Source: Phallusia mammillata
Lineage: Eukaryota
Direction: 5' to 3'
DNA length: 64,000 nucleotides
NCBI GenBank assembly: GCA_965637545.1
Contig: OZ281498.1
Span: forward strand, 5,518,001-5,582,000
In this document: one piece after another, positions 1,003-29,954 of the stretch
How positions within the stretch are numbered: the stretch's first letter is position 1
Layout: each line of letters starts with the position of its first letter
Notes under the pieces: generated by a model
Told to the model about the DNA's origin: nothing
The model's database searches: none
What the model saw: only the letters and a program-made list of their open reading frames with translations
Program-made: the position numbers and the translations under genes

Positions 1003-4000
1003 ATGAAACAAATGATGATGATCGCGTTTTTGGTAATTTGTGCAGTCACTAGTGGAGCATTCGGGTGAGTGGACAAGGTCGTTACTAAGCAAACCAGGAA
1101 TAATAGTTTTTTAGCAAGTAAAATGTTTAAAACCAATATGTAGAAAGTTTTTATCTAACAAATTTGTCGTTCAACTGGTGTAATGCATAACAAAATACTA
1201 GTTGTTGTTTCAAGAACTTGTATTTGCTAACGTTTCGCCCACCATAACGGCAGGGCTTCATCAGAGCAATGAATGATGTATTGCGAGCAACAAGCGAAAA
1301 AGCGAAAAGTTTTTATCTTACAACTTGTGTTGCAGCCTTGACCACACTATCGTTGGTGCCAAGGAATTTCGTGTTGGTGCAACAAACAATGTCGTACTCA
1401 ACTTTCACGGATATGCCGGCACTGCCAATGTTGAAGTGTTCCTTCAGGTAGGAAGGATTGGTAAATTAGGCAATACTTGTTATCAAAACGATAAAGTAAC
1501 AACTTAAATGCTACTTTAATTATTTTTTGTCAATTTTGGAATTTTGTTTATAATCACACCGTCAACGTGTAAACAATTGAGCTTTATTTAAGTACATAAC
1601 ACCGGTGTTTTGTAGACTCTTCCTCGGCGGCTAAATCAATTTCCTGAATCGCTATCAGAGAGGGTTGACGTGACACAGCCATATGAGTTTAACTTACAGG
1701 TATTTTGTGCATATCTTGTAAAAGGATTGGCACAGCCCGCAGCCGGTAACACAAGTTTGTGAGACTGCGCAGATGATAAAAAATTTTAGTTATTTATTTG
1801 GCTTCCGAAACCAATTCGCTCAAAAACCCCTCCGAAAGCAAATTTCTTTGTTACTAAGTTATAATTTACTGACCAAAAACGGCCAGAAAAAGCGGCGGTT
1901 GTGGAAATAAGCATCTGTGAAGCGGCCGCTAATAGAAAAAGTGTACCCCTGTCATATAAAGTGCAAGAGCATCTGCTGCGAAGGTTTGTCGTTCCAACAA
2001 AAATCTTTCACTAATCTAAGGCAGGTTTTCACGTTTGCGCGACATAAACATTTTTCATGGCAATTTTACGCAAGATAACTCCAGAAGACTTGGTCGAACC
2101 GAATAACGGCGGAAACATGTATGTGGAATTACATGTCAACGTGGACCAATCGAATGAAAACTTTCAGGAAGCTATTCCGGTTCTTCTGAATTTTACCACT
2201 GGATACATGTTTGTATCCACCGATCGCCCTGCTTACAGGTATGTTAACACCAAACCTTGCGTGTGCCACACATTGAGCTTATTTCGGGTGGCGCAAAAAG
2301 CACGAATACCTATTTAATTTAAAACAATATATCTTCAAAAATGGTGAGGTTTCAGACTATTTGGGTTGTGGTATAAGGTATTATCTTAAAAAATAACAAA
2401 AATAACTTTGACTTCTAATCCAAATTATTGTTACTTCCTAACCTTGTCCCTTTTTTTCACGGGGTTCGAACCCAGGACACTCCCGGGGCCGAATCCCGAT
2501 CAAGGTTTTTTGTGTCTGTATACGGGTCAGGCGCCAGGCCGTTCGGCCAAGTTCCTGCCCAACCCTGTCCCTTTTAGCCGGTAAATTAATATTTTAGCCC
2601 TATGAGCCACATACCGGAATATAGCCAAATGCTTGGCTGCCGTGAAGTACACAAATAGTAGCTGTTTACCAAGTGCCCCCAATCACATCACTCTACCATC
2701 GAATTATTTTGTAGACCAGGAGACGAAATGAGGATCATTGCCATGCTTACCGATCAAAACCTTATGGACAGTCATGGTGTTGATGTTGATATCATTATCA
2801 AAGTAAGTGTCTATAGCTGCAAAGTTCATTATTTTGTCCTGAAAGGCGTCCTTTGGTAAATCAACCAACAATTAACAACATGTAACAGATATGATGGATT
2901 GTTTGGTGTGTTTACTGCAAATAAAATTTACATTTTTAGCACCAGCAGACTAGTAAAACAAGCCTAAATTTTCACTTCGTTTTGGTAAGAATCAATAGAC
3001 ATGTACATGGCCACAAGATTCTTTTGCAAAAGCTTGAAAACACTAACATCTTCAGAGAAATTTCTGAATAAAATGCAAACAAATGTTTTCATGTGAATTT
3101 CACATTTTGGCAGTACAAAACGACAAGTTACATTTATTTATCCATCAGACGCCGTTTGAAGAAGGTGGTCATGGTAAAATAGGTGTTCTCAAAGCCAAGA
3201 AAACAACGGCTGCAGGACATTTTATTATCCATGAATATCAAATCCCACCAGAACCTTTGCTCGGAAAATGGTTTATAGAGGTTTCTGCTCCAGTAAGTTT
3301 TGCACAAATATGTTTTTTGCATTAATTTTATTAGAATAACAGCTCCATTTCCCTCGATCTTATGTATAATTTAGGACTTGGGTATCAAAAGCGAAACCAC
3401 GGTCCTCATCGACAAATACAGTAAGTATTTCTAACGTATGTGAATGTAAATATACATTATTTGATTACAAAATACGACAGTGCCAGGATTTTGTAAGACT
3501 TTCAAACTTCAAGCCTGTGTGGCTGTTTTGTTTCTTGACAGCTTTACCAACTTTTAACGTCAAGATCAAAATGGATCAACACTTTATTCTACCTACCACC
3601 AATTTTATCAGTGGAACAATAAACGCCGACTACAGTTATGGCAAAAGGGTGACTGGCTCTTACTTCTTGTTTGTAAACCTTGTACGAGGTAGTGAAGTGT
3701 CCGAAACTGTGCAGATCTATCGACACCCGTCAAGCTTTACACAAAGGGTAAAGTATTTTCACGCTTCCAAGTTGCAATATGCGATATAAAACTGTATCGT
3801 CCTGAAGGCGGGAATTGTCAGCGGCCGCAAACGCTTTGAGATCAGCACAGAAGTAATAACCGAAGCTCTGGGTGAAGATGAAACCATGGAAGATCTTGTA
3901 GCTGAAGGCGCTTCCCTTACTGTGGAAGTCGCCGTTACCGGTGAGTACCCATGCAATTAGTGAGTGCCAAACGCTGACTTTATTTGATCTGGCGATAACC

Positions 4001-7000
4001 ACACAACCTCTGCAGGTGGCGCTGAGAGCATATACGAGAGCGACATTGTTTCCGACATCAGATTTACGAGTTCGCCTTACCTAATAGTCACTGACCGCAG
4101 CTCGCGATATTTCAACCCAGGAATTGTGTATGAAGTAAAGGTAAGTAGACCTGGCATGTAAAAACACACCATTTATAATTTGTTGAGAACAAAGAACCCA
4201 CTTTGACACTTTTATAGGCTAACGTTCTAGACTCTGTTACCAGAAAACCAATCAATGACGTTCCAGTGGCCGTTACAGGTACAGGTAGATTTTTCATGAT
4301 TCCAAATTGGTTGTTAGTAATGTTACTTTATTTTAAGTCGGTGATGTTGTAAAAAGATCCAATTCGGATGAGCGGGGTGAGATTGTGGCCAGTTTTGATC
4401 GAACCAGCGACGCACAGGAACTGCAAATCACGGTAAGTAAACTGTCCAGAAAATTACTAATTTCCTGCCGTTAGACATTTGTTGTGTTGACCAGTTGGTT
4501 TACCTTTGACCATACGACCACGACCACACCTTTTATTATTCGATAACATTTGATCCAAAATACCGTTAATTTTACAAGAATGCAAAGATTACTAGCGCCA
4601 GTTGTGCAAGCCAAAGGTCCATAAACATGCTTTCATTGTAATTGGCATGAATATGTTTGGCAGTTGACAACAGCAAAGGAAGGACTTCAAGCGGAAGATC
4701 AGTATAGCACCACTTACACAGCACTCAGGCACCAGGCAGGAGCACTGATGTCAATCAGTGTTGACACGTGAGTTCGCAGGGCTCACTTGTTTGCCAGTTT
4801 AAAGCATTGCTACATATTCTTTGCTTGTTCTCAGACACGGTGTTGTTGGACGGATGATGAACGCTGTGTTTCGCTTCGAACCAGACGATGTAAGCGGCGA
4901 CATCCGATACTACGTAAGTTTGCATGTTTGTTTAAAGTTTTTTACTCATTTCTGTGTTCTTGGTGTGATTTTAAGTCGATGGCTATAACTTAATGATGCA
5001 GTCGAGATCAGTAAATTTTCGGAAGCTGTCAATGGGCGCAAAATGCGAACCAGATTTGTCCATAAAAACAACCATTGCAATCTTAGGCATGTTTTTATCA
5101 CCTAGACCCGTTTTTACTAGGGCACTATAGCAAAGCAAAACAAATTGTGACACTACAAGAAAGAACCATATGATATATATAATATATATATCTATGTATA
5201 CATTCGCTAATCTGGCATCTTCGATTCCATCAATAAAAATAGATTGCAAAGACGAATTTTTGTGGCATAGACTACGGCAGTGGTTCTCAAACTTTTTGTT
5301 GTTGCGACGCCTCTGAAAAAGTTTTCTGGACTTGCGACGCACCAGCAAATAAAAGTTAATGATGAAACTTATTAAAGTTGTGTTTATTGATACAACCACA
5401 AAAAGCCACGAAAAGGAACCATTCTGCGACGCCTTTGGAAAATTGAAACGACGCACCAGGGCGTCGCGACGCACAGTTTGAGAACTACTGGACTACGGGA
5501 TCAAATAAAAAACGAGTTTTTTTTCAGATTGTTTCCAAGGGTCAAGTCGTTTCCATTGGTTTAATACCAATAGATCCAGGACACCGCGGAGATAAGACGC
5601 ATGATATTCCTATTACACATCAAATGGTTCCTTCCGCCCGCTTGGTTGCGTACTACATGCGCGGCAATGAGCTTGTTTCCAACTCAGTGTGGTTTGATGT
5701 CAACGACGTGTGTGGTGGAGAGGCAAGTACAACTTGTTGACTGTTACTGTGGACGAATATCATGAAAGGATTGTGTTTGCCTTGTTTCGTGAGCTACTGC
5801 TTTAACTGTGTACACTTTTTCAAAGGAACTTACAGTTACAACATCTGTGAGCGAGGCGCGACCTGGAGACGACATAACAATCAATGTGCGAGGTTAGTTA
5901 TAGTTAGTCCTATAAAAATAATATTTATGGGTTTGCGAAGAGGCCTAAGGTGAAAAACAATCCAATGCACTTGCTTCTTTGCCTATCAGAATGTTTACAC
6001 GTTAAAATCTCACCCGGCCCATTGGAGGCGTAACACTGAGCCTGGTTGTCTCTAAGTATTACACTTTTACAGGTAAAGCAATAATGTTAGCCTGCGGTGG
6101 GATTCGAACCCACGACAGTAGCCTTTCCGGGACTCGCGCTCTACAAACTAAGATACTGGCCGATGAGCCTGTTAAAAAGTCGAATCACAAGCAATGTTGT
6201 CTGCCTCGTTAATTATGTTTATTTAAAGAGTTTTTCGAAAAACACAAACTCACTTTTAACTTGATTTGTAAAGAGCTGTCCGTTTACCTAACAAGTCTTC
6301 AAACCACCTTTTTACAAAGGCAATCCGAACGCGCTATTTCATTTATCGGCGGTGGATCGCGCAGCTTACTTTGTGTACAACGGCAGTCGTCTGACGCGCG
6401 ATGTGATGTGGAACAAAATGCAGCAGTACGACAGCGCTTGTTCGCGTGAGGGCGGAAGCAACAACAAAGACGTTTTCGAGGTATTGCTGATCGGAAACAT
6501 ACTTGCAATTTGCCTGTATGCATTTTAGTTGGCCACACTGTAAATTCAAATCAGGTTTCTGACAATGACTATTTTAGAGCTGTGACTACAATTTTTACAT
6601 GATTTCAGGAAGCTGGACTGTTTATTGTTAACAACGCCCTTCGTCCCATATTATACGATCAACCAGTTTGCCCACAACCCGTACCGCGACGAAAGCGGCA
6701 GGTGGATGTGATGGTAGCTGAAACAACCAGAGGTAAGAAGCCAACATAATACATTTATTATATTGGAGCCCGACCTGGCCGGAATCCGATTTGTTTTTGA
6801 GAAGCCCGTTTAGGCCCGAAAGTTTGATTGACAGACCTATACATTAAGCCCTAGAAAAGACCAAGACAACAAACACAATAGACAATAGTAGACAATCAGT
6901 TTTGAACAAGGCGTTTTAGGGCTGTTTGACATTAGGTAAGTCCAGCAACTAGCTACTAAGCTCGTTAAATTTATTTAAAAAATACTGACACAGAGTGTCA

Positions 7001-10000
7001 GCCCGAAGCATGCCCGTTTTTTGAAGAAATCTAAGCCCGAAAAGCCCGGCCCGACTTATAGCTATGCCATGTACTACATTTGGCCACGTGCACATTGTAT
7101 TTCTTATTGCCACTGTGGTGCGCAGCTATTCTCTTGTGTTGAACTTACAGATTTAGCATTCCCTCATTGTGCCTTTGGGGCTTTGTCTTGCACTGATTGG
7201 CGTAGAACGCGCTTCTTTGCAATTAAGCAGGCACAAAAGGATCATGTTTAAAGAGTCAGGCTTTCTTAGGTTTGCTTGAGATTGGTGTTGGCTGTTGGTC
7301 ACATCAACTGTTTGCGCCATGTTTTGCCGTTTTACTATTTTATTGTTCAATTTGTGATACTTTTAGCTTTTCGAGTTATAACGGTGTTGAAGGAGCCCTT
7401 TTCAAGGATTTTTACCTCAACAGTTTTGACCATATCGAATAGGCCGAAGTTAATGCTTTATAAACTAGGATAGCATTTAGGTACACTATTCACGGTTTTG
7501 AATAATTTGAGCAAAAAAATCAGAGACAGTATTTGTATCTTCAGTCATATTCAGTTTGCCAGAACAAAAGTAATTTTAGAAATGTAGTCATGTTTTATAC
7601 ACAAATACTGGCTCTGATTTTTATGCTTGGGATAGCATTGCTTCACTAACTGTTATACACCATTAATCTTATACTGTTACAATAATTCAGTAACACAAGT
7701 AAGCTCTGTTTCAGGTCGCCAAACGTTTTTAGCAGACTGCGAAAGAAACGGTAGAGACACCGAAAGTGACGAATTATGTTTGAGACGAAAGTATCGTGTT
7801 TGGATCAACACCCAGGATTTGGAATGTGTTCGACTATTTGCTCAGGCGTGTCGGCAAGAGATGGCGCGGAAACGAAGGTAAATATACTAACTGTAATACA
7901 TGTTATGTAAGCAAAAGCAGCCCAAGACTTTATAAACCATTTGTCCTTGATTGTATTTTTTGAAAATAACTTTTAAACAAGAAAAAGATTGATATAACAA
8001 TACATAGAAAACATTGCCTGCTGAAAATCACCTTTACCAAGCAGTTTGCTTATAATATCCAGTGGGAAATTTGCTGGCTACTGCTTTATATGTGCTACTG
8101 CTAATTTGGGTACACAAAAAGGAATAGTTTAAAGTGAAATCAACTCTTTACAGTCGCAGTATTCCGGTGATTACTGTTCTCTACATCAACATAATCCAAA
8201 ACCCACTGTACAAACCCCTAGGCCCAAAAAATCATAATTTTGTTTGTCCTACTAGGGTTTTGTACACCACATTAGTTTTGGATTATTTGTGTACACAATG
8301 CACGGGTTTAAATACAATCAGCAAAAAAACACAACCCAATTATTTTGTGCAAATCATCCTTATCGTTATAAGCATATGATGCTTTACACACAAATATTGG
8401 CTTTTTTGCTTTAACTATACCGCCAATTTGCTTTGGTTTTCTAGAGGTAGATTTGGAAGATCGAACAGCGCTGAAAAAGTTGGTGAAGCGCAGGATCGTA
8501 AGAAGCAAAGAACAAACTTTGAAGAAAATTGGTTGTTTATTACCAGGAGTTTAAAGTAAGTGTTTGTATTTAAGGTGAGATTGAATAATGTTTTTTACAA
8601 AAATTTTATAACGACGATGTCACGTGAAAAATATGTCGGAATTGTTTTGATATTTTGAAAGATTAAACCTCCTTAGCCAATCGATCTTGACTTAAACAGA
8701 CACCAATTGTAAAAGCATATGTTTAGCAATGACGGTGGGTGGTCAGATACCAGGCCTGTACCAGGAAGTATCAGCACCTTTGAGTTCAACGCCTTCAGTT
8801 CCAGCAGTCAAGGTGAGAACTGTTATGTTTTGGTTTGTCGTAGCTAGAACCAGAAGGTTGTTATGCTGCTTGATAAGTCGTTGCTTGTTTCAGTTTTTTA
8901 CTTAGCAAACTGCATTTGTCTTTCAAAAATTACAAAAAAATGTTTGTTTGTGGTGTTTCCCTATTCTGCCCCATACAATTTTTTGTTGTTGCTTCTTTTC
9001 TGTTCATATTTTAGAATAAAAAATAACTGGTTAATTTTTTTTGTAGGCTTTTGTGTTGCCAAACCAGCCAACTTTCTTGTGTTTAAAAAGATCTTCATCC
9101 AGCTTTATCTTCCTTACTCTGTTCGGCTAATGGAACAAGCCAGCATTCGTTATTCAGTATTTAATTACAACCCGAATGAAATTGAGGTAAACCATATAGG
9201 ACACTTATTGTAAACGTTTTAGGAGCACGAAGCAACAAATCAGGGGTACTATAACACTAACACAAAGGCTTGTTCATGACAATTTGTTAAAAAGTAAAGT
9301 TTTAGTTTGGTGAAAGAAATTTATTGAATAAAGCACATAACACCACCGAATACGGAAATGGATGACGATTTTACTTTAGTAACTTAATATTAATAATACA
9401 ATAAGATTTTTATCTGTCATTGGAGACACGGGGGTAAAAAAAATCCGAAAACTTAAGGGGTATGCATAAATGTTTGAAAGCACTGATGTAAGAGTTGTCA
9501 ACAGGGTTACAGTTAAGTGGTGCGGGTCGGGACTCCAATTTCAGGCACGTTTGAAACTCTGGCGCAACAACCATCACGTTTGGGTTCATTATATTTAGGC
9601 GAGAGTTCAACTGAGACACTCCGAAGACTTATGTTCACAATTCTCTTCAAGTAAGTTAGCCATGTTTAACTTAACGATTGCCCTAAACATGTTAGAGTAC
9701 ACTTAATTCGTCGTATTATAGAGAAACAATTCCTGTTTAACTATAGACCTCGGTTAATTCGGACCAGTTTGGACCCAAACATTTGTCCACATTATAGGCG
9801 AGGATCCGAATAAAACGGTGTCGGTTAGTTCAAGCCTTTCACATTTCCAATTTTTTGTATGTTAAGTTTTGTCCGAATAATATGAAGATCTGATAAAACA
9901 AGTCAAGATTTAAGTGAGTTTTAAAGCAGTTGGTTTTAAAACGTCTGGAACTGATTTAACATATTAATAATTGAAAACAGCGCCTCAATCGACTAAAATT

Positions 10001-13000
10001 GTGCAAAAGGTTTTGGCAAACCGAAACTTAATGCAGCACTGCTTAGGCAAATGATACATGGTTACGGACAAAAATGGTTTCGTATCTAACAGAATGCATT
10101 CCTAACAATAAACAGAAACAATGAACACGATTGCCACATTACGAGTACCGGGCAATTCCGCCAAATCTTCCTATTTCACCGTGATGCCCATCAAAATTCC
10201 GGCTGACCCAAAAGGTGCCAGCATAGAAATGGCTGCTGACTCAGCGGCGGGAAATGACTTTCTTGTGAAGTATTTGCTAATTGAGGTACGGCTTTGGTTT
10301 ATCACTTGAATATTTTTTTTTACTTTTGGATTTTTTTGCATACAGCCAAGCGGTCTTTTAAACGAAAGCTCAAAGACTTTTGTTCTCACTCCTCCTCAGA
10401 ACATAGCCTTTAGCTTTTTAGTCCCAAACGACGGTTTTGAACCTAATACTCGAAAGTGTTGGATCTATGCATATGGTGAGAAGGCATGAAATACCTCTTA
10501 ATCATACAAAGCCGTTCAACATAAATTTATGTTTCAAGCCAACGTTCTTGGGCCTATTGCGACACCAGACCCGATCACCAACAGATACAACAACCTGCAG
10601 AACTTGATTCGTCAACCAGCAGGCTGTGGGGAGCAGAATATGATTAGAACAGCTCCTATTGTTTTCATTCATAAATATCGACTGGCCACAGGTCAGGTGT
10701 TAACAGGCGGCCCAGAAGAGCAGCAAGTGATTGACTACATTCGGCAAGGTGAACTCCTTAACTTGGTTGGTCTTAAGCTAGAAACTATACATAAAGACGA
10801 GTGTACAAAATTTACAGGAAATATAATTTCACAATCGATAACCAAATGTGTTCCGCTTTAAGGTTGGGCAAGGTGGGTAATTAAACTGAACACAACACAT
10901 TAAAAAGTATCTGACATGACTACGGCATCAAATTGAAATGCTTTTAGGTTGGGCAATTGAGCTTCAATGGCGATCAGACAGTGTAGGAAAGAGAGCCTGG
11001 GCTGTGTGGAACGGTGTGCCGCCAAGCGTTTGGTAAGTAATTGGGACTTTTCAAACTAATTAGAAATGATGGAAACATCAAAATTTTATGCTCTGAAAAT
11101 GTTTGAGTCCAAATAGGCTTATAAGTATAATAATCATTTTAACAACATGAAGTCCGTTTTGCTACATTTTCATTGGTAGTTATGAACAGAGAAGTAAGAA
11201 TGTTGGAACAGTTCAGTTGTATAAAGCAGATCTCCTAAAAGTTAATTTTTTATCAAACGATTTATTTGCGCTATTTTATATCAGAAACTTTTTTTAGTAT
11301 TTCCACTAATAATGAAAGTAAAAATAATTTCTTTCTAAAATAAATTCTTAGGTTGAACGCTTTTGTGGACCGAGTGTTCGTGGAGGCTCGAGACATAATG
11401 GTAGATCTCGATCCAGCACCCATTTGCTCGTCGCTGGTTTGGTTAATGGAACAGCAAAAGCAAGATGGCAGATTTGTGGAAAGCTACCCTGTTAGGCACC
11501 AAGAAATGGACGTATGTTATCAAAGCTTTAGCTGCACTGTTTACCATATTTATACACAGCACATTTTCAATTTTCGTTACATTGACACCTGGTTGTTGGT
11601 TGAGCGTTTTAAAGGGTAGATAAACTACAATATAACGGATAGATCAAGTTCATTGGCATGTTAAATTTGCTTTGCAGGGTTTAGTTCAAGGTGACATTGC
11701 GATGACGGCTTACGTGACTGTGACGCTTGGCATGGCTGGCCGGGCTTGTCCACACCTGGCAAGGAATCTTAATGAGGCGAAAGACAATGCCTTACGTTTC
11801 CTGGACGACCAATCGACCGCTATGATGAATAACGCATACGTAACAGCTGTGACGGCGTACGGACTTGCAATGAACGAGGGTTATGAAAATCTTGCACGCG
11901 CATGGAACAACAGGTAAAATGGCCATTTGGAGGTTGACACTGAAAAGTGGCGTTTTTGCTTTCGACCCAACAGAAATCAACCATATTTTTATGTTGTGCC
12001 CAAGTAATGAACCAATGAAGTTCTTAAACAATATATCCATACGCAGGTTTTTTTTAAGGTTTGGTTTGGGTGACCGCTAAGTAGTTTTAAGAGACTGCAA
12101 GTGTTCATTTAAATACCAAAAAATAGCCATATTTGCAAAAAAATAGCCATAAGTCCAAATTTTGGGAAACCGCTGGAGAAATTTGGGGGACCGTTTCGGT
12201 CCCCCAAAACACCTTAAAAAAAACACTGCCCATACGTATGTTCAAAATGTTCTGTCCTCCTCATTTTATACATGATATTTCAAACGAACGTTCTGTTATT
12301 ACCTATCTTTTTACCTAGATTGCGTGGCTTGTGCACTGAAACTGCACAGCATATTTACTGCCAAAGCGCCGGCGGCCAAGCGGGGAGAGTTGAAACAACT
12401 TCTTACGCTCTCCTGGCCCAGATCGCCCTTGTTTCCGATGTCGGTGGGTGTTTGTGAGATTTTTGTGAGATTTAGTGAAAAAGACAACCTAGTCTACACA
12501 AACAAATTCCTGGTTTTGTTTTTTTGTCAGCAACCGAGGATGAGATGTTACGGGTTCGTAAGATGGCTCTCTGGCTAATTGAGCAACGAAACAGTTTTGG
12601 TGGATCACAAACTACTCAAGACACAGTGATGGCTCTGCAAGCCTCTGCCGAATACATGAAGTGGATTCACACGATCGTGAGTTACAAAAGTGTATAAATC
12701 AGTATGTACTTGGCGACTATGTTACCTGACTTATCAGTCAATTACTTCCTGCAGGCAATGTATGCTTCGATGTACATGTGCAACAAGTAAAGCTTTGCGG
12801 AAAATAAATTATTGCTTTCCACAGAATATATTAACTGACGAATAATTCAATGTAACTGAAACTTAACTTCCGTATAAAGGAACATCAATTTTTTGTAAAG
12901 AACGCAGAACCTCCGCCAACTAATATGAACGTCACATTCTCGTCTATGTTTCATGGAGCTGACTGGCAAAACCAACCTGTGAAGATTGCATTGGACGAGT

Positions 13001-16000
13001 CAAATGAAGCTGTGCGTCATGAACTCGAGGTTCCAAATAACGTCATAGGCATGCCGGTTGATGTTAACATTGAAGGTGCGTGGCTGTTAGACTACAACTT
13101 CAATCAGCGTGAATTTATGCGCTTTTTTACCATATTGTTTTCGTTTTTGAAATCCGCATTGCATTAAAACAGTCTTTCTCAACCTTATACACCAATTGCA
13201 TACCACCTGACAACTTCCTAAACCTTGCCACCTAAACTCTGTTTAATGGATATAATCTAAGATAGGCTTGTATTCATGATTTGAGGCAATGTTAAACCCC
13301 ACAGAACCAAAATAAGGACGAAACACAACCATTCTGTACTAATAGCCAGGTAGATAAACTTTTGTTTTCATGTCAAACGCGTAGGGTACGACTTCGCGTG
13401 ACGTCATAAATGATTCGGTTGATTCGGCCAAAACCGCCGAATATTCGGTTTCGGCCGAATCGAAATTTCGCCGATTTAGTCCATCATTAATTTAAACCTT
13501 GCCTCGTTTTTGTCCAGGCGTTGGAGAAGCATCAATGTCGTACAGGTGCACATGGAGAGAAAACGTTGATGGCAAGAACTGCCAGTTCGAAATCACCGTT
13601 ACGACCAAAGTGATCCGCGATCCCCAGGACGTGGACGATCCTCAAACATATCTTAAACTAAAAGTAATCATAAAAAGTTATTTAAATGCAAAATACAAAC
13701 TTTGTTAAATACAGTTTAAGTTTTATTAGGTAATAGAGATACGGTCAGGGAAAAATTTAGGTCGTTTACGATTTGTATATGTGCGTAGTTTGGTTGTGTG
13801 TCAAATCCATTTTGTTGGTGTAACAGATATTTTTGTTTTAAAGAAAGTTGAACCATATTTCAACTCATTGATTTGATGCTTTACTATCCACAGATCAACA
13901 TTCAAAAACCGGAAAGTCCTAAAGCCAACATGTCCATCGTTGATGTAGGATTAATATCAGGTTTTGTCCCGGTTCGGCAAAGTATTGATAATTTGGAAAA
14001 AAACAACCGCGTGGACGGTACTGGTACGCAAAAAGTAGTGTTACAACATGCATGATTTTTTACTCAGTTTATGTGAAACCAAAAAGTTAGGTCCCATTTA
14101 CTCAACAGGTAAATTACAGTAGAAACATGCTGTTCCGGTTTTGTTCGCTCTCACGTAGTTTCTATATTAGGGTTGCTACACCTGAAGGGACCAAATTCCG
14201 ACAATTTTAATACATACCTTTCTTGAAACTAAACTGGCGACGTGTTGCGTGTTATACAATCGTGTATCAAAAACCGCACAGACAACAATAAACGTAAACA
14301 GCTTTAAATACACTTGTGCGCCGAAATAAGGAAGAAATCAGTCGGTTTAGAATGGTAACGTGATGGGGCATTGCCACCCTGGTTTGAATCACCATATCAA
14401 GGAAATTTTGGCCACCTTTAGAACTTGTAGTTTACTAAATACCGAATTCCGGACATTGGGCGTGTGATTTAAATTAGTTTTGCATTCTTAAATTAGATTT
14501 TACAAGTCTATTCTCCTTTAGTTGACAGATACGAAGTCACCGACAACTCGGTTAAATTCTACTTAAGTGAAATCAACCAGAACGACACTGTATTGAGCTT
14601 TAAACTGAGACAAGAAAGTGTCATAAAAAACCCGCAACCCGTTGCTGTGAAAGTCTACGATTACTACAATCCCGAGGTAAAATAATTGCAAAACCTATGA
14701 TTTGCTCAAATTTATCATAATGTGAACATGCAATATTTTCTAAACGCATTTAACTGTATCAACTATCTTATGTTATTTTTTTCATCCGAAAAAAAAGGTA
14801 TTTTTTGTGAAGTGTCGTTAGCAAACAAAAGCACATGGAAAGTTTCTAGTTCGTGGTAAATTCCGTGAACACGTATAGGCGATTTTTTAAAACTTCAACA
14901 CGGTTTAAAACCTTTGCAAGCGCTTGCAAGTCATTATGTTTTACCTGTATTAGCAGCAGCAAACAGTTCAAGACTGATTTAGGCACTGCGTCTACCTTTA
15001 CGAAGTTAACTTTTGCACGCAGATTTCATGTTCAAAATTTTACGCGTTGGACGATCGTGTCGAACTTCGAGTAGCTTGCAACAACGCTGCAGAAAGGTCG
15101 CAACGGATTTGCAAATGTGCGGAAGGAGGATGTCCAAAGTGCAGGTAACAATGGGGAGTGATCATTTCGTACAAGAGGTCATTTCGTATAAGAGCCTCCA
15201 AACTTTTTTCGCTACCGTCGTAAATAGCGCTGGCCGCATGGTTTTTATGCCCTAGCGCTGTCTTTCCAAACTTACTCCGAAAGTACATAAACTGTAATGG
15301 AAGCCAAACCAGTTTAAGCATAAAAAGAACCGAATTCAATAGGCGCTGCCTGCCACGTCAAGACAGGAGCGTAGTCGTTTTTATTGGTATTCTTTGATAA
15401 TAAGTATTTTTTATGAATACTTTTTGGGTTTCCCTCTGCATTAGCCCAGTCAATATAAAAAACACATTTTTCAACTAGTTATGAGTTTATATTAAATTTG
15501 TAAACTGGGTATTAGGACTCGTGAAGAAGTCGCAACGGACTCAAAGTGCATCATACTTCCAGTTGCTAATAACAGGTACAGATTGTTTATTATCATACAC
15601 CTGCAAATGTTTGCAAGGCTTTTCAACATGTGAAATTGCCACATCAATTTGTTACACGTAACATACTTATGTACACAATTCATATTTCCTAACTAGAAAC
15701 AAACAAGCCAAATATTTGTGTAAAACATAACGTTTCGGTAGCAACTTATTCTCAAAACCTACGCGATCCTGGCAAACCGCTCAAAACGACTGAAATGTTT
15801 TACCGATTTATTTTAAGTTACCAAAATCGGGATATTTCGACCCAAAATTCAGATGCAATTTTTAAGGTTTTGCCGCAATTTTTTGTATTTTGAAATTCTG
15901 CATGCTCAACTTAGTACAGATGTGAAAGTTCACCGTTCTACCTGTTCTATAACAAAAGATATGCGATGTTTTTTGTGTGCACTGAAGCCGTTTTGCGCGG

Positions 16001-17929
16001 TTTGTCAAGATCGCGTAGGTATTCTCAAATGAATGAATGTAAGAACCAGTAAAAGCAATAAAAAATGCGCGAATAAACTCGAATGCCAGTTAAAAAAATA
16101 ATCCAAAACCCAGTGTATAAACCTATGTTTAGAATCAACCGTTGTATATAGTATTTTCACAGTTCCTGTGAGCGAATACAACACTGTTATAAAAGCGATA
16201 AAATATTGGCAGTTAAAAACGAACGTTTTCTGAGTTTTTAGGAAAAGACGCTGCGCTGATTGGGAGGAAACTTGCATGAGAGATCCGAAAGTTGGTTGTC
16301 ATGACTCTGTGGTCAAGGCTTGCGAAAGGCTAGTATTGTATTACTTTATACCAGGGGTGGGGAACCTGCGGCCTTTTAGGGCACTAAGTGCAGCTTTCGA
16401 CGTCAGAATAAATTTTAGGATGTTGATATTTCAAACTGCACCAGGCGCTGAAAAATAGACAGAAACAGCCAAATGGTCCCGTTGTGGTACACGAAGCGAT
16501 TTCCGTAGGTTCTACAATGCTACTTGTCTTGTAATTGTTTACGCATAATCGAATGTCTTAAACACGTCTGTGATGTCACAAGCTGGCCTTAGATCATCGA
16601 TATTTGCAAACAAGCGAGTTTCTAGGTTAAATAAATCCTGAATGTTGTGTTGAAGGGGCAAATGTAGTGAGGAATAGTATTTAAGTCCTACAACTCTACG
16701 AGGGAATAACAAAACGACCATTCTGTAAGTCAAAAAGATTGAACACCACTGTCCTCGGCCTGGGAAATAGTCTATGCGGCCTAAACGAATGTAAATAAAC
16801 CGTTTGGTGGCCTTTATAAACAAAAAGGTTCCCCGCCCCTGCTTTATACTGTACGCTTTTTTTCTGTTTTTTTTTTTCACACAAACTCTTGTTTGACAAA
16901 AAAAAACTCTTTCGTAATTATTTTTTGATTTCTTTTTCAATTTCACACAATTAAACAAAATGTTAACTTATTTATTTCTGCTTTTAAAGGAGTTACTTAT
17001 TTTATGTGACTGTGACTGAGGTACGAAAAAACCAACCACCAAACTTCGTCGAATTTGATGCAAATGTTCTGCATAATCCCAAAAAGGGTAAAGTTTCATT
17101 CCATTCTTGTTGTGTTGTGTTAACAACCGCTCCCATACTCTCTTTAGTTTGTTTTCTAACTCAACTGATGCCGTGTCGATAGAAAATATTTTTTATTTGC
17201 TAGGTTTGGACCTAACAAAAGGCAAAAAGACTTTCCGAATGAGATTTGATTGCTTTGAAAATTGCCGCGATGAAGCACTCACCAAGCAACCGGTTAGTCT
17301 ACATTACTAATGTGCATTGTGATGTTCTTAATCATCATCAATATCCTGAAAACTTTTATTCGTTGAGGAAAATATTTAAACTTTTTTTCAGAATATAGAT
17401 GTGATCAAAGAAGGTCGCAACCTAATTATTTATGGAAACGAGCCGCAGAGAGCAACTAACCCGGACGGCTCGCCCTCGTAAGTGTTATAAAGGATAAGTA
17501 GCTTGAAGAAAAAGTTAACCAAAATAGACTACAATTAAAGCTAAAATAATCAGTTTTAACCGGTGTGTAGTCAGTTTGGAGTTGTAAGCGAAGCCCAATT
17601 TTGGCCCTTAAAAAAACGGAAAAGCCCGTCCTGACTCACAGCTCTGAATCAGTGTACTGTGGCACAAAGGTTATTTTATATTTATTATACACAACGAAAG
17701 GACTTCATTTTCGTCAATGTAAAACTGATGTTTTTTTAGTTACTTATACGTCTTGGATGAGACTTCCATTATTGAAGTTGCGCAGGCTGGTAAAAAATGC
17801 ACAAAACTTCAGAAAGAAGAATGCGAATCAGCTGCTGCCATACTAAATAATGCTAAAAAATGCCTGCGCAAGCGAGTGTGCTTGCTGCATGAGAATCTAA
17901 GGAAGATGGTTGGTCGTGGATGTGGCTAA
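1003..17929 (+). CDS. C3: Complement component C3 (thioester protein), 41 coding exons, ~1713 aa
   Basis: Phase-compatible exons: 1003-1064, 1336-1447, 1616-1699, 2075-2238, 2715-2802, 3149-3292, 3375-3420, 3542-3747, 3808-3940, 4016-4140, 4218-4284, 4338-4432, 4664-4767, 4835-4913, 5528-5722, 5826-5892, 6320-6480, 6609-6732, 7715-7877, 8445-8555, 8727-8812, 9047-9186, 9599-9650, 10116-10285, 10346-10475, 10539-10748, 10948-11032, 11352-11511, 11678-11913, 12319-12443, 12531-12676, 12901-13075, 13518-13663, 13894-14017, 14522-14676, 15023-15144, 16242-16328, 16990-17087, 17204-17292, 17392-17477, 17740-17929 (total 5142 nt, in frame). Motifs: signal peptide MKQMMMIAFLVICAVTSGAFG, TDRPAYRPG, LPTF, SPY..YFNPG, RRKR beta/alpha site, ANATO, RTNFEENWLF, GCGEQNM, PVRHQEM, VETTSYALL, TQDTVMALQA, VYDYYNPE, CKCAEGGC anchor and C345C. 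Confidence 0.95.
2455..2560 (-). pseudogene. Retroposed, 3'-truncated tRNA-like element (Leu-type class II scaffold) with an intron-like insert, in C3 intron 4
   Basis: The minus strand reads GGGCAGGAACTTGGCCGAACGGCCTGGCGCCTGA-CCCGTA-[20 nt]-ATCGGG...GTCCTGGGTTCGAACCCCGTGAAA, with A-box and B-box motifs and CCTGA/TCGGG pairing. It is flanked by 15-bp direct repeats at 2440-2454 and 2561-2575 (14/15 identical). Confidence 0.6.
5278..5490. mobile_element. hAT-type MITE, 213 bp
   Basis: TIRs CAGTGGTTCTCAAAC / GTTTGAGAACTACTG; perfect 8-bp TSD GACTACGG at 5270-5277 and 5491-5498. Confidence 0.85.
6090..6160 (-). mobile_element. tRNA-derived SINE head
   Basis: The minus strand reads ...TTAGTTTGTAGAGCGCGAGTCCCGGAAAGGCTACTGTCGTGGGTTCGAATCCCACCGCAGGC. 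It has a B-box and is homologous to copies near 18200, 40260 and 56800. Confidence 0.7.
6687..6698 (+). other. C3 beta/alpha chain processing site RRKR
   Basis: CGA CGA AAG CGG in exon 18, at the canonical position just before ANATO. Confidence 0.9.
6766..7063. mobile_element. Degenerate MITE with GCCCGA subterminal repeats
   Basis: Repeated GCCCGA motifs, and the end CCCGACTTATAGCT resembles the ends of related copies at 17577-17646, 40567-40778, ~39260-39292 and ~49920. Confidence 0.5.
10622..10636 (+). other. Thioester motif GCGEQ
   Basis: GGC TGT GGG GAG CAG; the C3-type catalytic His is CAC at 11497-11499 in PVRHQEMD. Confidence 0.95.
16352..16841. mobile_element. hAT-type MITE, 490 bp, in C3 intron 37
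   Basis: TIRs CAGGGGTGGGGAACCT / AGGTTCCCCGCCCCTG; perfect 8-bp TSD CTTTATAC at 16344-16351 and 16842-16849. Confidence 0.85.
17577..17646. mobile_element. 70-bp mini-MITE of the GCCCGA family
   Basis: Ends TGGAGTTGTAAG / CTCACAGCTCTG; flanks AGTCAGTT and AATCAGTG (6/8) resemble a decayed TSD. Confidence 0.45.
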
Positions 17930-18189: not shown

Positions 18190-18780
18190 CGAGGTAGGCA
18201 ACGATGGGTTCAGCTGGTAGAGGGCGTGTCCGGGTAAGGTTCATGTTTTGGGTTCGAATCCCACCGCAGGCCAGACGCTTCTAACTAGTGATGCACCGAA
18301 GTTTCGGTTGGCCGAAACATTTCGGCCGAATACGCTGTTTTTCGATGTTTCGGTTTCGGCCCGAACTTTTTTGAAAATTCGGCCGAAACCGAACTTTTTG
18401 ATTGCATAGAATTAATGCCCAAACTAGCATTTTCACCTGTACAAAACGTCATAAATTAACTAATTGTTGTAAGTTATCTATAAAATACGAGCCACTTTGT
18501 CTGCAAAATATTGCACGTTTAGTAAAGCTTCCAGATGGTGTAAGTGATTTTGATTTGTCATAATTCACTTCACTCGCATCAACGACACAAGGTTCAGTTG
18601 AAAACATCCATAGAACAGGATTTTAGGTTCGGCCTGATTCGGCCGAAATTATTCGGCCTCGTGGCCAAATATTCGGTTTCGGCCCGAACGTTTTTAGGCG
18701 GGTTCGGTGCATCACTACTTCTAACCTACTCCTTGCCGTATGTGAATGCTTGGTGACCAGCTGATAAGCCTGGCGTATAC
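18190..18780 (+). mobile_element. tRNA-derived SINE split by a hAT MITE
   Basis: The head (A-box-like AGCTGGTAGAG, B-box GGTTCGAATCCC, CCGCAGGC) spans ~18190-18285. The tail CTACTCCTTGCCGTATGTGAATGCTTGG resumes at 18726 and matches the copy near 56850. Confidence 0.7.
18286..18717. mobile_element. hAT-type MITE with CCGAA/TTCGG subterminal repeats, 432 bp
   Basis: TIRs TAGTGATGCACCGAA / TTCGGTGCATCACTA; perfect 8-bp TSD CTTCTAAC at 18278-18285 and 18718-18725. Related decayed copies occur at ~13410-13490 and ~36797-37230. Confidence 0.9.
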
Positions 18781-24224: not shown

Positions 24225-27200
24225 ATGTGGCCCGAATACATTAGTGTTTTCTTGCATCTATTTGTTTCTGTTACTTTTGCGGTCAAACCTTTGCTGAAGC
24301 GTGACGACGGGGGAGCCCCGGTACAGGCGGTGACGTGTAAGTTTTCAACTTATATTGATTTCTATAAAAAAATTATTTATTTAACTGAAAGTTGGTCTTT
24401 AGATACATACACTCGCTTCAGTGGTGAAACATTTTTTGTTAAACTTCGCGCACCGGCATCAAGCTGATTATTATTATTACAAGTTTCTAAACTTACTTTG
24501 ACCTTTGTTTTGTTTGCTTGTTTCATTAAAAATGGCTTCCGCAATCCTAAGATTGCAATAGCATTAAACAACATATTAGCTAATAAAACTACACCGTAGA
24601 AAATGCTCATAAAATTGTAGCTGAAGCAAAATATCCAACTTGGTAGACATTGCGTGACAGCACAATAGATTGTGCCAATTCTGATTCAATTGGACTAACT
24701 AACAGCTTTTTTCTCGCAAACTAAAAATGCGCGAGTCACTTATTTCAAGGATAAGGCGTTAGCGTGCAAGTTTTTTTATTTTTCGGGTGTGGAGTTTTTA
24801 AATTCTTCTGGTTGGCAGGGTTTTGTGTTCAACGCGTGGAAGCAGGAGCGAAATGGAGAAACTTTCACAGCCGAGGTTACCCTAAAGCGCTTTACGTGAA
24901 GGATTCGCGATGTACATGGAGGTAAAGTAAACACGAATGCAACAGATTGCCACAAAACGTACCAAGCATATGGTGATACCGAACACGGCTAGTGTCTGTG
25001 GTTTCAACACTATTTGAGTTATATCGGGTAGATTAAAAACAGCCAAAATAACTTCACGTTATCAAAAAGTCATCGCCGCCTGCGGCAAGACATTGTAATG
25101 CCATAATAATATTTGAATAACATCAAGTAAATTAAATATATTTTTAAAGATTTACAGATAACTGCAAAAGTGTCGTTTTTTCTCATTTTTATGAAACGTT
25201 GGTTGCTGTTTGGCTAAATCTGAATTTGATAATAATATGTATTAATATATATTTCAAAACATATGTCAAAACAGTAATATATACATTAAAGCTGTTTGGC
25301 TTAATTTGATACATTTTCTATAGATTGCAGGCCGCCAAAGGTCAACGAGTTCAAATTGCTTTCAAAGGATTAGATTTGCATGCAGATGATCCTGCTCACT
25401 GTGCTTCCGATTATGTTGAAATCATTGATGAAACCATCGGAGTGTCACAAGCAAAGTTTTGCGGGAAAAACACGCCTGGTGACATTGTATCGCAAGGTAT
25501 GCCAAATCGAGGCCTGTTAACTGACCCTGGCTTATAAGATTGTAATCATTTGTTGGTGCAGGTCGTAAATTACGGATTGACTTTCAAGCACAGCCGGGGA
25601 GGAGTAATATGGCCGGGTTTATGATTAGCTTCAAGGCGACAACCAAAAAGCCTGGATTTTACGGTAAACTGTTTTCTGTGCACCAAACCTATACACAATA
25701 CCTTTTTAAGTTGTACTTTCTGTATAAACGAGGTTACCTGAAATTTTGGGGTTTAGATATGTTTGTTGGCACGAAAATGTAATCAAAATTCCTTTCAGAA
25801 ATTCCTCATATTGTATACCAACGGCTGGATTCGGAAGTGTTAAATTAATATGCCTTACTATAAAAGTGTATCAACGATTGGTTAAGCATTGCTCTTTTAC
25901 ATGAAATGAAAGAAATTTGTTTTTGTATTAGCAAAAAAATCCTTTGAAACTCCTGTCACACAACGTCCGAAGAAGACATCGAAGAAGAAGAACACCCATA
26001 CAAGTAACAGAAACTTAAATTCTCTTAACTTTATCCTATGCTCTGCAAACTTTTCACCCTGATTCGTGCTTAGATAATTTAAACAATAACAACTACAACG
26101 ATGGAAACACCAATAGTCAGTCTTCAAGTATGAGCACTGTTCACATCGTGGGACTGGTCATAGGATTGCTGATTGCATTGGCTATCGTGATTTTCATCGT
26201 ACGGCACATGCACAAAAAACGAAGAAAAAAGAAGAAAATGAATAAAGAAAGCGCAAGCAATCAAGTCACCAAGTTTACTGATCTTGATCCCAATTTGCCA
26301 CATGTAAGGTCTGCAAGTATTAATTAGTTGAGATTAATTTAACTCAAAGCCTTCAAATTACCCTTGATTTGAATGGACACAAAAAAAATATTTACTTATT
26401 TCTGAAACAGAATGAAGTAGATCCGTTTGAAAGAATCGACATGGCTTGTGGACCCGCCCCATCAGCTCCTGATCTTCCTCCGCCTCCTTACGAACACAGA
26501 CACGAAACGTTTCGACCTCCACCATATCCACCTACCACTGACCATCACTTTAAACCAACGGAGTTGCCAGAGTCACGCAATTTCTCATGGAACCAGCACA
26601 AATATAACAACATTAAGAGGCGAAGCACTCATGAAAAGCACGGTCCGGAAAATACCATTCCGATCTACAGCAACGAGATTGAAAACGCTGTGGACGTGCC
26701 CCGGCAGAATAGACACAGGCCAGGCCGAACTATTTCCTGTACGCAGCCTCCGATGCCACACAGAAATGGTTTGTTAAAATCAAGAGACAGAGACTCGAAT
26801 GGTGATAACCGTCCACCACCCTTGAGAGCTTACCCGAAAACCCTTTCACACAAAGTTTCGCAACAACGTGGTAAGTGCGATGTACGTTGTAGAAACTGGC
26901 GTAAAAGTTTGGATTAGCAAATTGTGTTACAATGTTAGCTAAACGAATACCCAACCTGTAGCTATAATGTTAAGGTACATAAATGCAAGTACATTTTCCT
27001 CATAGGTTTTCTGATCTAGATTACTCCCAAACGCCACAAAATAATTGTTTGTTTATTTTACAATTGCCTGCAAAACATTCCGACTGTAGCACCATGTCGT
27101 ACTCCATGCCCATTGATTGCATTATACCGAATCAAGCCGTTCTCCCAAGCAGGGCTGATCCCAGTACGTGTGATGTTTACCGCCTTAGATGTAGCACCAT

Positions 27201-27965: not shown

Positions 27966-28506
27966 ACTGTAACTTCAAACTATATGATGTGTTCAATGTC
28001 CTGTGTAATATGTACCAAATGTGTAAACCGCCAGTGTTATCAACGTATCTTTAATATCGTCGCTATCCATTTAACCTTTTATAGCTAGTCCGTCGTAAAT
28101 ATCTGCTGCAAAATCACGTGATATACTTTTGCTAAACAGTTCACAAGCAATGTAGCTGTAATAGCTTTTGCAGATTGCATTGGTTCTGTTTTCAAGATTT
28201 GTTGGAATTAAAGTTTGCAACAAGAGCCAGATGAAGAGAGTTTTATATCAGTTGTTTGAACATAATCTTGTAACAACGACCATAATCTGGTGTCGTTTAC
28301 CGCGCTTTGGTAAACACAGCATCCAACGGCACATCTGCAAGGCTGTCGGCGCAATATGCCCCAAACAGTGTAATCAATTCAGCTTTATAGTGTGTCTGCA
28401 CACTGAAAACACTTTAGTGTCTCACCAGTAGCGTTTTTGTTTGAAGCCAGTCAGTGAGGCAGGATTTTGTTTTTGTTTAAATAGTGAAAGTAACTAAGCT
28501 GCTAAA

Positions 28507-29954
28507 ATGCGGGTAGTGGTAGCCGGTTTGTACAAAACTGGTACAAAGACTTTAAAACAAGCACTTGAAACACTCGGTTACAATGTTTGGGATGTCTCAG
28601 AACAACTGAATGCTGTGTGTGGTGGCCCAATGGCTTGGGAAGATTTGCTTCAGACAAATGCAGATCCTATCGTCCAGTTACAAAAGGTAAGTATCACAAA
28701 AATGTTAACACTTTTAGAGGAACTAATGCAAAATAGAATTAACTTGTCTTGGCCTTCAGCATCAGCAAACAAGGCGTCAGATTTAGCAGTATAAAGATTT
28801 TGTATGGCTTTAATGTGTTAGGTAGTAACTGCCCAAACGTTTATTTCCAAGTTGAAAGTTTTTTATTTTCAAAAGTTTTGTAAGAATTGTTTCGAATTGC
28901 CTACAGCTTTATTTTGCACTTATATTCGAAATATTGTGAAAACATTTTTTCACTGTTTTCTTTTTTGTTTTTAAAAGATGCTGCAATACTGTGATGCTGT
29001 TACCGATGGACCAAGCGCCGTTCTTGCCCCAGAAGTTGCCCAAGCATTTCCTGAGAGCAAGGTTTGTGTGAATGAAGTGTTTTTGTACAGTCAAGGCGAC
29101 TTATCTTGCTATACCCAAGAACTTATTGTACAGAAATGTTAAAAGGGTTTGCAAAAGGGGTGAAAGGCATTTGATGGTTATACATTTTACGAGGAGTATT
29201 TTTTGGTTGGCACAGGTGGTCTTGTGTGTAAGGGACAATGAACATGTTTGGTACAAGAGTTATGAGAAGAGTCGCGATGTAAGTTATTGGTTTTTAGAGT
29301 TTTAGCCTACTTTGTTTTGAGTTTATGATGTACTGATCAATCATCTATTCACGAATTTTTTTAAGCAGATGTACGAAACTTTAGCGCTAATAATTTTCTG
29401 ATCGCAATTGTACCTTGATTTGTTACGCAAAAAATATGTAAAAACTTTATTATCCTTATTTCCACTTTGACGCATGCCTTCGATTGCAGACGTTGAACTG
29501 GAACTTTTTCGTGCAGTTTTTTCGTCTTCTCTCGCACACAGCGCGTCGTCGTTACGAAATCATGCGCCTGGTCAATGACAGCTTATCTAGTGGCCGATTT
29601 TCCACAGGAGTGCATTCTCTTTCTTTTGGTCTCAGTTCTGTTTTATGCCAGCACGCCTACCTTGCCCATAACGCTCTAGTCGAAAAGCAAGTGCCAGAGA
29701 ATCGATTGCTTAAATTCAATGTTAAGGAGGGATGGAAACCCTTGTGCGATTTCTTGGGTCACGAGGTTCCATCTGTACCCTTTCCTCATGCCAATCGTGG
29801 AGCATTTAACGCCTCCTTACCTGGTTTTCTGGACTACATGCGATACAACTCGGCTAAAGACACCCGCAACAAAGTCTTCATGGAAACAGCTTTTGCCTTG
29901 ATGGCTATCGCTACCACGTTTTTGGCTCTGTATATTGCCTTTCACTTAAATTAG
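28507..29954 (+). CDS. Sulfotransferase-like P-loop protein (Sulfotransfer_4-type) with a C-terminal hydrophobic anchor, ~263 aa
   Basis: Exons 28507-28686, 28978-29061, 29216-29278, 29490-29954 (all phase 0, 792 nt). Motifs VVVAGLYKTGTKTLKQALETLGY, DAVTD, FPESKVVLCVRD and RLLKFNVKEGWKPLCDFLG..VP..PFPHAN. Confidence 0.85.

Follow-up and report, generated by a model that had tools for sequence, protein, structure and literature searches.

The 64,000-nucleotide (nt) stretch analysed here, referred to as the window, comes from the ascidian Phallusia mammillata (contig OZ281498.1, positions 5,518,001 to 5,582,000; G000:C5:5518001-5582000 in our coordinates) and carries on its forward strand a complement C3 gene, designated as W. 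A tetrabasic motif, RKRR, is encoded in the linker between the anaphylatoxin domain of W and its presumptive activation site, and it is the subject of the present analysis. The features on which the argument relies are the following, with positions of the window and amino acids (aa) of the W protein:

1003..17929, + strand: complement C3 gene W, with ATG at 1003, stop at 17929, 42 modelled exons, 1,735 aa and a signal-peptide-like first exon
6687..6698, + strand: beta/alpha tetrabasic junction RRKR (aa 671-674), in exon 18 (6609-6732)
7715..7877, + strand: exon 19, coding for the four-cysteine anaphylatoxin domain with three predicted helices
8445..8555, + strand: exon 20, modelled
7867..8445 (7867-7877 + 8445), + strand: RKRR (aa 737-740), the last codon being split by intron 19
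8446..8463, + strand: presumptive activation site GRFGR|S, placed by alignment with the GR|S sites of other tunicate C3s
8497..8511, + strand: RKKQR, a further basic patch that closes the alpha' N-terminal segment and is one base short of the strict motif R-X-K/R-R, which paralog D (see below) has
10622..10636, + strand: thioester motif GCGEQ (aa 998-1002), intact
11497..11499, + strand: catalytic His of the C3-type H-Q-E-M motif, intact

When joined, the 42 exons gave a single open frame of 1,735 residues with zero internal stops. In a Pfam scan of 14 single exons, 7/14 matched thioester-protein families of TED or receptor-binding type, three further matches were to MG3, A2M_BRD and A2M, and four exons, exon 19 among them, had no match. 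The first PDB match of the exon carrying the catalytic His was C3d. The 70-aa thioester exon, used as query in a homologue search, retrieved no match, and the Atlas search with exon 19 returned no result. The closest relatives of W are the tunicate C3s of Styela, Clavelina and Ciona, and a quick tree (16 rows, without A2M or CD109 outgroup; all tree results given here are from quick trees) placed W within the tunicate C3 clade with a support of 100. The C-terminal ~200 aa are Cys-rich and in tblastn align weakly with the C-termini of tunicate C3s, while two single exons gave no C345C Pfam match. A candidate exon at 15256-15371 was discarded, since nothing in D corresponds to it and the frame is continuous when it is left out, and the loci L004 and L005 were rejected as C3 genes, their top scores being with CD109 and A2M-type proteins. 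Exons 15 and 38 of W are followed by GC-AG introns (5723-5724 and 16329-16330), both retained in D, where two additional GC donors occur.

The canonical RRKR at 6687-6698, already described in a reading of the sequence alone (hereafter the sequence-only reading), was confirmed in exon 18. That reading had also proposed that the exon 19/20 junction encodes RKRR five residues before FGR|S. Indeed, the junction is in phase 2 and completes RKRR at its last residue, GRFGR|SNS coming next, so that RKRR stands five residues ahead of the presumed scissile Arg; the GRFGR|S segment also carries two minimal R-X-X-R motifs overlapping RKRR. An RNA-like contig of run X2 (379 nt, depth 8.5) spans the joint with 0 mismatches, skipping 567 nt with GT..AG ends and thus joining 7877 to 8445. 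This joint is present in one of the two RNA-like runs, as the X1 contig stops 3 nt beyond 7877. X1 and X2 belong to one study, and their RNA status is a guess, no source run being recorded as RNA; it is suggested by joints with GT..AG ends at places where the DNA-like run X3 is continuous. A further run, X5, gave matches to repeats only. Two other acceptors were considered, AG 8449-8450 (acceptor at 8451), which would retain RKRR, and AG 8445-8446, which would place a stop immediately after it, and neither is used by any contig; the proposed survival of the motif at the former acceptor thus holds on paper for a site that no contig uses.

The sequence-only reading had further described the anaphylatoxin domain as bracketed by two furin-type sites. 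Both motifs are present; the join of exons 18 and 19, however, follows from phase, GT-AG ends and the paralogs, no RNA-like contig shows it, and X1 and X2 instead join exon 19 to an additional exon within intron 18:

7329..7480, + strand: extra exon in intron 18, with an in-frame TAG at 7471-7473 and a provisional 5' end

The joint 7480->7715 (GT..AG) was found in both X1 (depth 6.6) and X2 (depth 8.5). No open path leading from exon 18 through the extra exon to exon 19 was obtained from any AG tested, and an exon with an in-frame stop would be either an alternative first exon or a poison exon; these data suggest an internal promoter or a poison exon. Starting from the extra exon, the first in-frame long open reading frame begins at Met 7861, with three ATGs preceding it. 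In D, the 7480 donor has been lost by deletion. No X1 or X2 contig covers exons 15-18, which is not evidence of silence.

The conservation of RKRR was examined in the tail, here defined as the residues that follow the last anaphylatoxin Cys, up to the aligned scissile Arg. Eight rows were omitted from the count, namely the broken models P0053 and P0037, P0146 with its long insertion, P0122 and P0127, in which the tail is broken or a duplicate, P0083 with a degenerate domain, and P0078 and P0147, in which the site was not located. The strict motif was found in none of the tails of 27 non-tunicate proteins, against 1.1 expected by shuffling, in none of those of 5 proteins from other tunicates, and in neither of the P. 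mammillata paralogs U and G4. The tail of W is basic at 7 of its 14 residues, a composition at the top of the compared set, and 53% of 5,000 shuffles of this composition yielded a strict motif; the notable feature is therefore the composition, the motif itself being unsurprising. Five residues ahead of the scissile Arg, a basic run ending in Arg recurs as RKRR in W, ERRR in U and KKKR in Styela, while it is missing in G4 and in three Clavelina proteins; in the Ciona savignyi protein P0006, RR lies six residues ahead. On sequence grounds, the basic patch is a feature of a clade (two species), in which the P4 Arg is not conserved, being replaced by Lys in Styela and by Glu in U. Similar basic patches occur in the tails of vertebrate C4 (3 rows). 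As a separate observation, the unnamed C4-like protein P0144 has a strict R-A-K-R at aa 688, between cysteines within the anaphylatoxin domain. A third strict RKRR of W, at aa 1553 (15573-15575 + 16242-16250), is formed across the modelled exon 37/38 junction and is common to D; it sits directly ahead of the C-terminal domain, which cleavage there could sever, and it indicates that off-junction furin motifs do occur in W. Proprotein convertases are encoded in the genome, with seven P-domain matches at 4 places.

The four Cys of the anaphylatoxin domain are invariant over 8 aligned tunicate-type rows. An AlphaFold2 model of exon 19 from an 8-row alignment (mean predicted local distance difference test score, pLDDT, of 93.8) is a three-helix bundle, with helices at residues 2-14, 19-33 and 36-53. 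All of the top 10 Foldseek rows were C5a, with weak scores (E 0.6-2.2) and consistent ranks, and the best VIA row was also C5a (Z 6.8, root-mean-square deviation 2.0, 51 aligned residues). The last helix takes in the P4 Arg and the P3 Lys of RKRR, the model stopping inside the motif. In the model of C. savignyi P0006 the helix extends to Cys+13, the RKRR of W corresponding to Cys+6 to +9, and both the beta/alpha site and the scissile Arg lie in low-confidence segments (pLDDT <50). Proprotein convertases require an extended substrate, and an Arg at P2' of a convertase site is unusual. From these models we infer that RKRR would lie where the last anaphylatoxin helix ends and would be a poor furin substrate in transit.

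Four C3 genes were found in the genome, W being flanked by U just upstream and by D just downstream on the opposite strand, with G4 at C5:2.55-2.58 Mb:

G000:C5:5605300 to 5587078 (L011-L013), - strand: paralog D, ~5 kb beyond the end of the window
G000:C5:5496400-5516400 (L008-L010): paralog U, with a stop codon within the thioester motif and a damaged His exon
G000:C5:2552500-2578500 (L022-L024): paralog G4, of Clavelina/Ciona type, with thioester motif and His present

In the tree, Styela P0008 was sister to the clade of W, D and U (Shimodaira-Hasegawa-like approximate likelihood ratio test support 99), and G4 was placed with the proteins of Clavelina and Ciona; the aligned activation residue of G4 is Lys (QGK|S), not Arg. 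U is open in 18 of the 19 compared exons and, judging from its sequence, is probably a dead gene. Both neighbours of W have lost the thioester. In D, the motif reads GDGES, the Cys and Gln codons each differing at all three bases, and the His is replaced by Tyr, while the frame is open without stop across exons 2-36, the 3' exons being open by eye. A deletion of ~297 nt has taken the second half of the D exon 19, including two of the four Cys and RKR, and a GTAAGT donor preserves the frame. Moreover, two single-base changes, derived with respect to W and U, give the activation site an R-F-R-R and the following patch an R-K-K-R. Changes creating a strict motif are 4 of the 243 possible in D exon 20 and 16 of 10,134 over exons 1-36, and two of the four D differences in exon 20 are of this kind (binomial P 0.0016, for a comparison chosen post hoc). 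The acceptor of D exon 7 is GG, and the nearby AGs, as checked by eye, shift the frame. No variant letter of D is carried by the X1/X2 contigs, from which its silence does not follow. D may encode a functional mimic of C3b, or else be a null allele or a recently arisen pseudogene of such a mimic, and its sequence would make it a better candidate than W for a born-active C3.

Changes between W and D were polarised with U as outgroup over 19 exons, 80 ambiguous codons being set aside. The W branch carries 59 synonymous versus 19 non-synonymous changes (omega about 0.10), and the D branch 31 versus 37 (omega about 0.36), which is below neutral (P 5e-5) and differs from W (P 3e-4). An exposed thioester quickly reacts or hydrolyses (PMC9296861), and full activation in the Golgi would thus squander a motif kept in the constrained W.

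The reading towards which we lean, at slightly better than even confidence, is that W is a regulated ascidian-type C3 with an intact thioester motif, whose RKRR belongs to a basic patch that makes the linker easily cut on demand. Established for W are its sequence and splice junction, the integrity of GCGEQ and of the catalytic His, the constraint on the gene and a basic patch shared across the clade. Under this reading, W would be cut once during secretion, at the beta/alpha RRKR, and would leave the cell latent with the anaphylatoxin domain attached. Activation at or near FGR|S would then be due to an Arg-specific serine protease, such as a factor-B convertase, a MASP, or a microbial or haemocyte protease, and the basic patch might serve protease docking or access, or give the released peptide its cationic tail. 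In Halocynthia, activation of C3 by lectin-MASP has been reported (PMC5465252), and the activation sites of invertebrate C3s are variable (PMC8960428, PMC8089394). The sequence-only statement that C3a is released only by a convertase was too strong, as other proteases do so.

Several observations weigh against this regulated, on-demand view. RKRR is a perfect consensus in a protein that traverses the convertase compartment, and it is followed by Gly, so that the helix may end and fray there, the model being cut off inside the motif. D lost RKRR by deletion and gained two strict motifs in the linker, as compensation would predict; G4 keeps thioester motif and His without the patch, thus leaving W free to specialise; and the tetrabasic run of Styela lies at identical spacing. 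Finally, ScpA cuts human C3 7 residues upstream of the normal site and NalP 5 residues by the paper's spacing, positions -5 and -7 thus being protease-accessible in native human C3 (PMC5555575). The accessibility of this region also counts in favour of the sequence-only proposal of furin cleavage.

Possible, though unlikely, is that RKRR is a real site used conditionally. A proprotein convertase at the cell surface, in granules or in secreted form would cut it upon degranulation or inflammation, or the cut would come early with the thioester remaining latent. Such cutting would add a convertase-independent trigger alongside the normal one, and it agrees with the strict motif and its two overlapping R-X-X-R motifs, as well as with the Arg-ending patch that W, U and Styela have exactly five residues ahead of the scissile Arg. 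It is the strongest rival mainly because D re-created strict motifs in two of its four exon 20 differences (the post hoc P 0.0016 given above). Cleaved yet latent thioester proteins do exist, TEP1cut staying latent via a partner (PMC3464232), and ascidian haemocytes release a C3-like protein on meeting non-self (PMC5465252). Against it stand the missing P4 Arg in U and Styela, the predicted helical context of the site and a clade made of two species.

The sequence-only reading had gone further, with furin fully excising the anaphylatoxin domain in the secretory pathway and a pre-activated, C3b-like W being released. The perfect consensus, its spacing and the junction were borne out; a basic patch is conserved in the clade, the genome encodes convertases, and the existence of a second thioester-bearing C3, G4, would also allow it. 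Constitutive excision itself appears decidedly improbable for W, where the P4 Arg is not conserved, the predicted helix runs into the motif, and thioester and His are intact under purifying selection; a thioester exposed in this way would react or hydrolyse fast (PMC9296861), wasting a motif kept at omega about 0.10. The released peptide would be short of its last five residues, and human C3 cut upstream gives a short C3a and a long C3b, the ScpA products being shown to be impaired, not enhanced (PMC5555575).

Scarcely probable, lastly, is that the main product in the sampled tissues stems from an intron-18 promoter and starts at Met 7861 without signal peptide and beta chain. The basic run would then form the N-terminus of a fragment inside the cell, unless the RNA is non-coding or degraded. 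In favour of this are the joint 7480->7715 in both runs, at depths resembling those of the downstream exons, and the fact that the extra exon cannot be in-frame internal. Against it, the evidence comes from low-depth contigs of one study with a guessed RNA status and a lacking 5' end, the 7480 donor is deleted in D, and constraint on the 5' exons of W implies a full-length protein made somewhere.

Elsewhere in the window, high-copy repeats were observed at 6090-6149, 18212-18271, 6790-7000, 7510-7627 and 15754-16023, their kinds being a pair resembling tRNAs, in which ARAGORN called no tRNA, an intron 18 element of very high abundance and two inverted-repeat elements. Downstream of W, at 25313-25534 and 28501-29951, lie a CUB-domain exon by a likely transmembrane segment and a Sulfotransfer_4 gene.

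A broader proposal, drawn from the sequences and in our view rather unlikely, is that one ascidian C3 lineage wired its activation linker to proprotein convertases, W being thioester-armed with a convertase-independent trigger and D an endogenous, born-activated C3b mimic. If true, a convertase-triggered C3 or a natural born-active C3b mimic would provide a route to the first activation of invertebrate C3 needing neither lectin proteases nor tick-over, and D, thioester-less and with a crippled anaphylatoxin domain, would seed or deplete complement like cobra venom factor. W and D, as two close relatives, make the convertase-trigger idea testable. If instead the favoured explanation holds, the result is a modest one, an ascidian C3 that is ordinary apart from its unusually basic linker, both of whose cluster neighbours are thioester-less.

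Among known systems, human C3 cut by ScpA or NalP resembles an RKRR-cut W in that cleavage falls 5-7 residues before the normal site, the enzymes being bacterial evasion proteases and the product impaired (PMC5555575). Thioester-less C3-like duplicates occur in invertebrates, besides vertebrate C5 (PMC8960428), and D is like them in having lost GCGEQ after a lineage-specific duplication; unlike them, it is missing half of the anaphylatoxin domain and has acquired furin motifs at its activation site, a combination not described in the excerpt of that paper. In the literature covered on ascidian C3a and furin and on furin-cut thioester-less C3, which comprised few subscription journals and no primary ascidian C3 papers, no furin motif in a C3a tail was found, and a review of convertases and complement, in the part available, places convertase sites only at chain junctions.

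The closest known protein is the complement C3-like protein of Styela clava (XP_039248459; P0008), to which W is 37% identical over aa 4-1289. Both have the four-Cys domain, a tetrabasic run five residues before the scissile Arg and the thioester motif, whereas the Styela run, KKKR, is without P4 Arg, and the tail of W is shorter (14 versus 16 residues past the last Cys) and more basic. With vertebrate C3, C4 and C5, W shares the domain order, the beta/alpha tetrabasic site, the thioester with His (of C3 type) and an exon 19 model similar to C5a, and with C4 also the basic patches near the activation site; it differs in having four instead of six Cys and in being without the C4-type alpha/gamma motif between CUB and MG8. 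Cobra venom factor is a C3b-like protein that, after processing, is without the C3a and C3d regions and forms a stable convertase. The concept in common is a C3 homologue delivered minus its anaphylatoxin domain, and the venom-factor-like activation put forward for W in the sequence-only reading fits the thioester-less D far better than W, which retains thioester and His. To judge from its sequence, D would approach the design of cobra venom factor, its thioester being disabled by substitution and not by excision.

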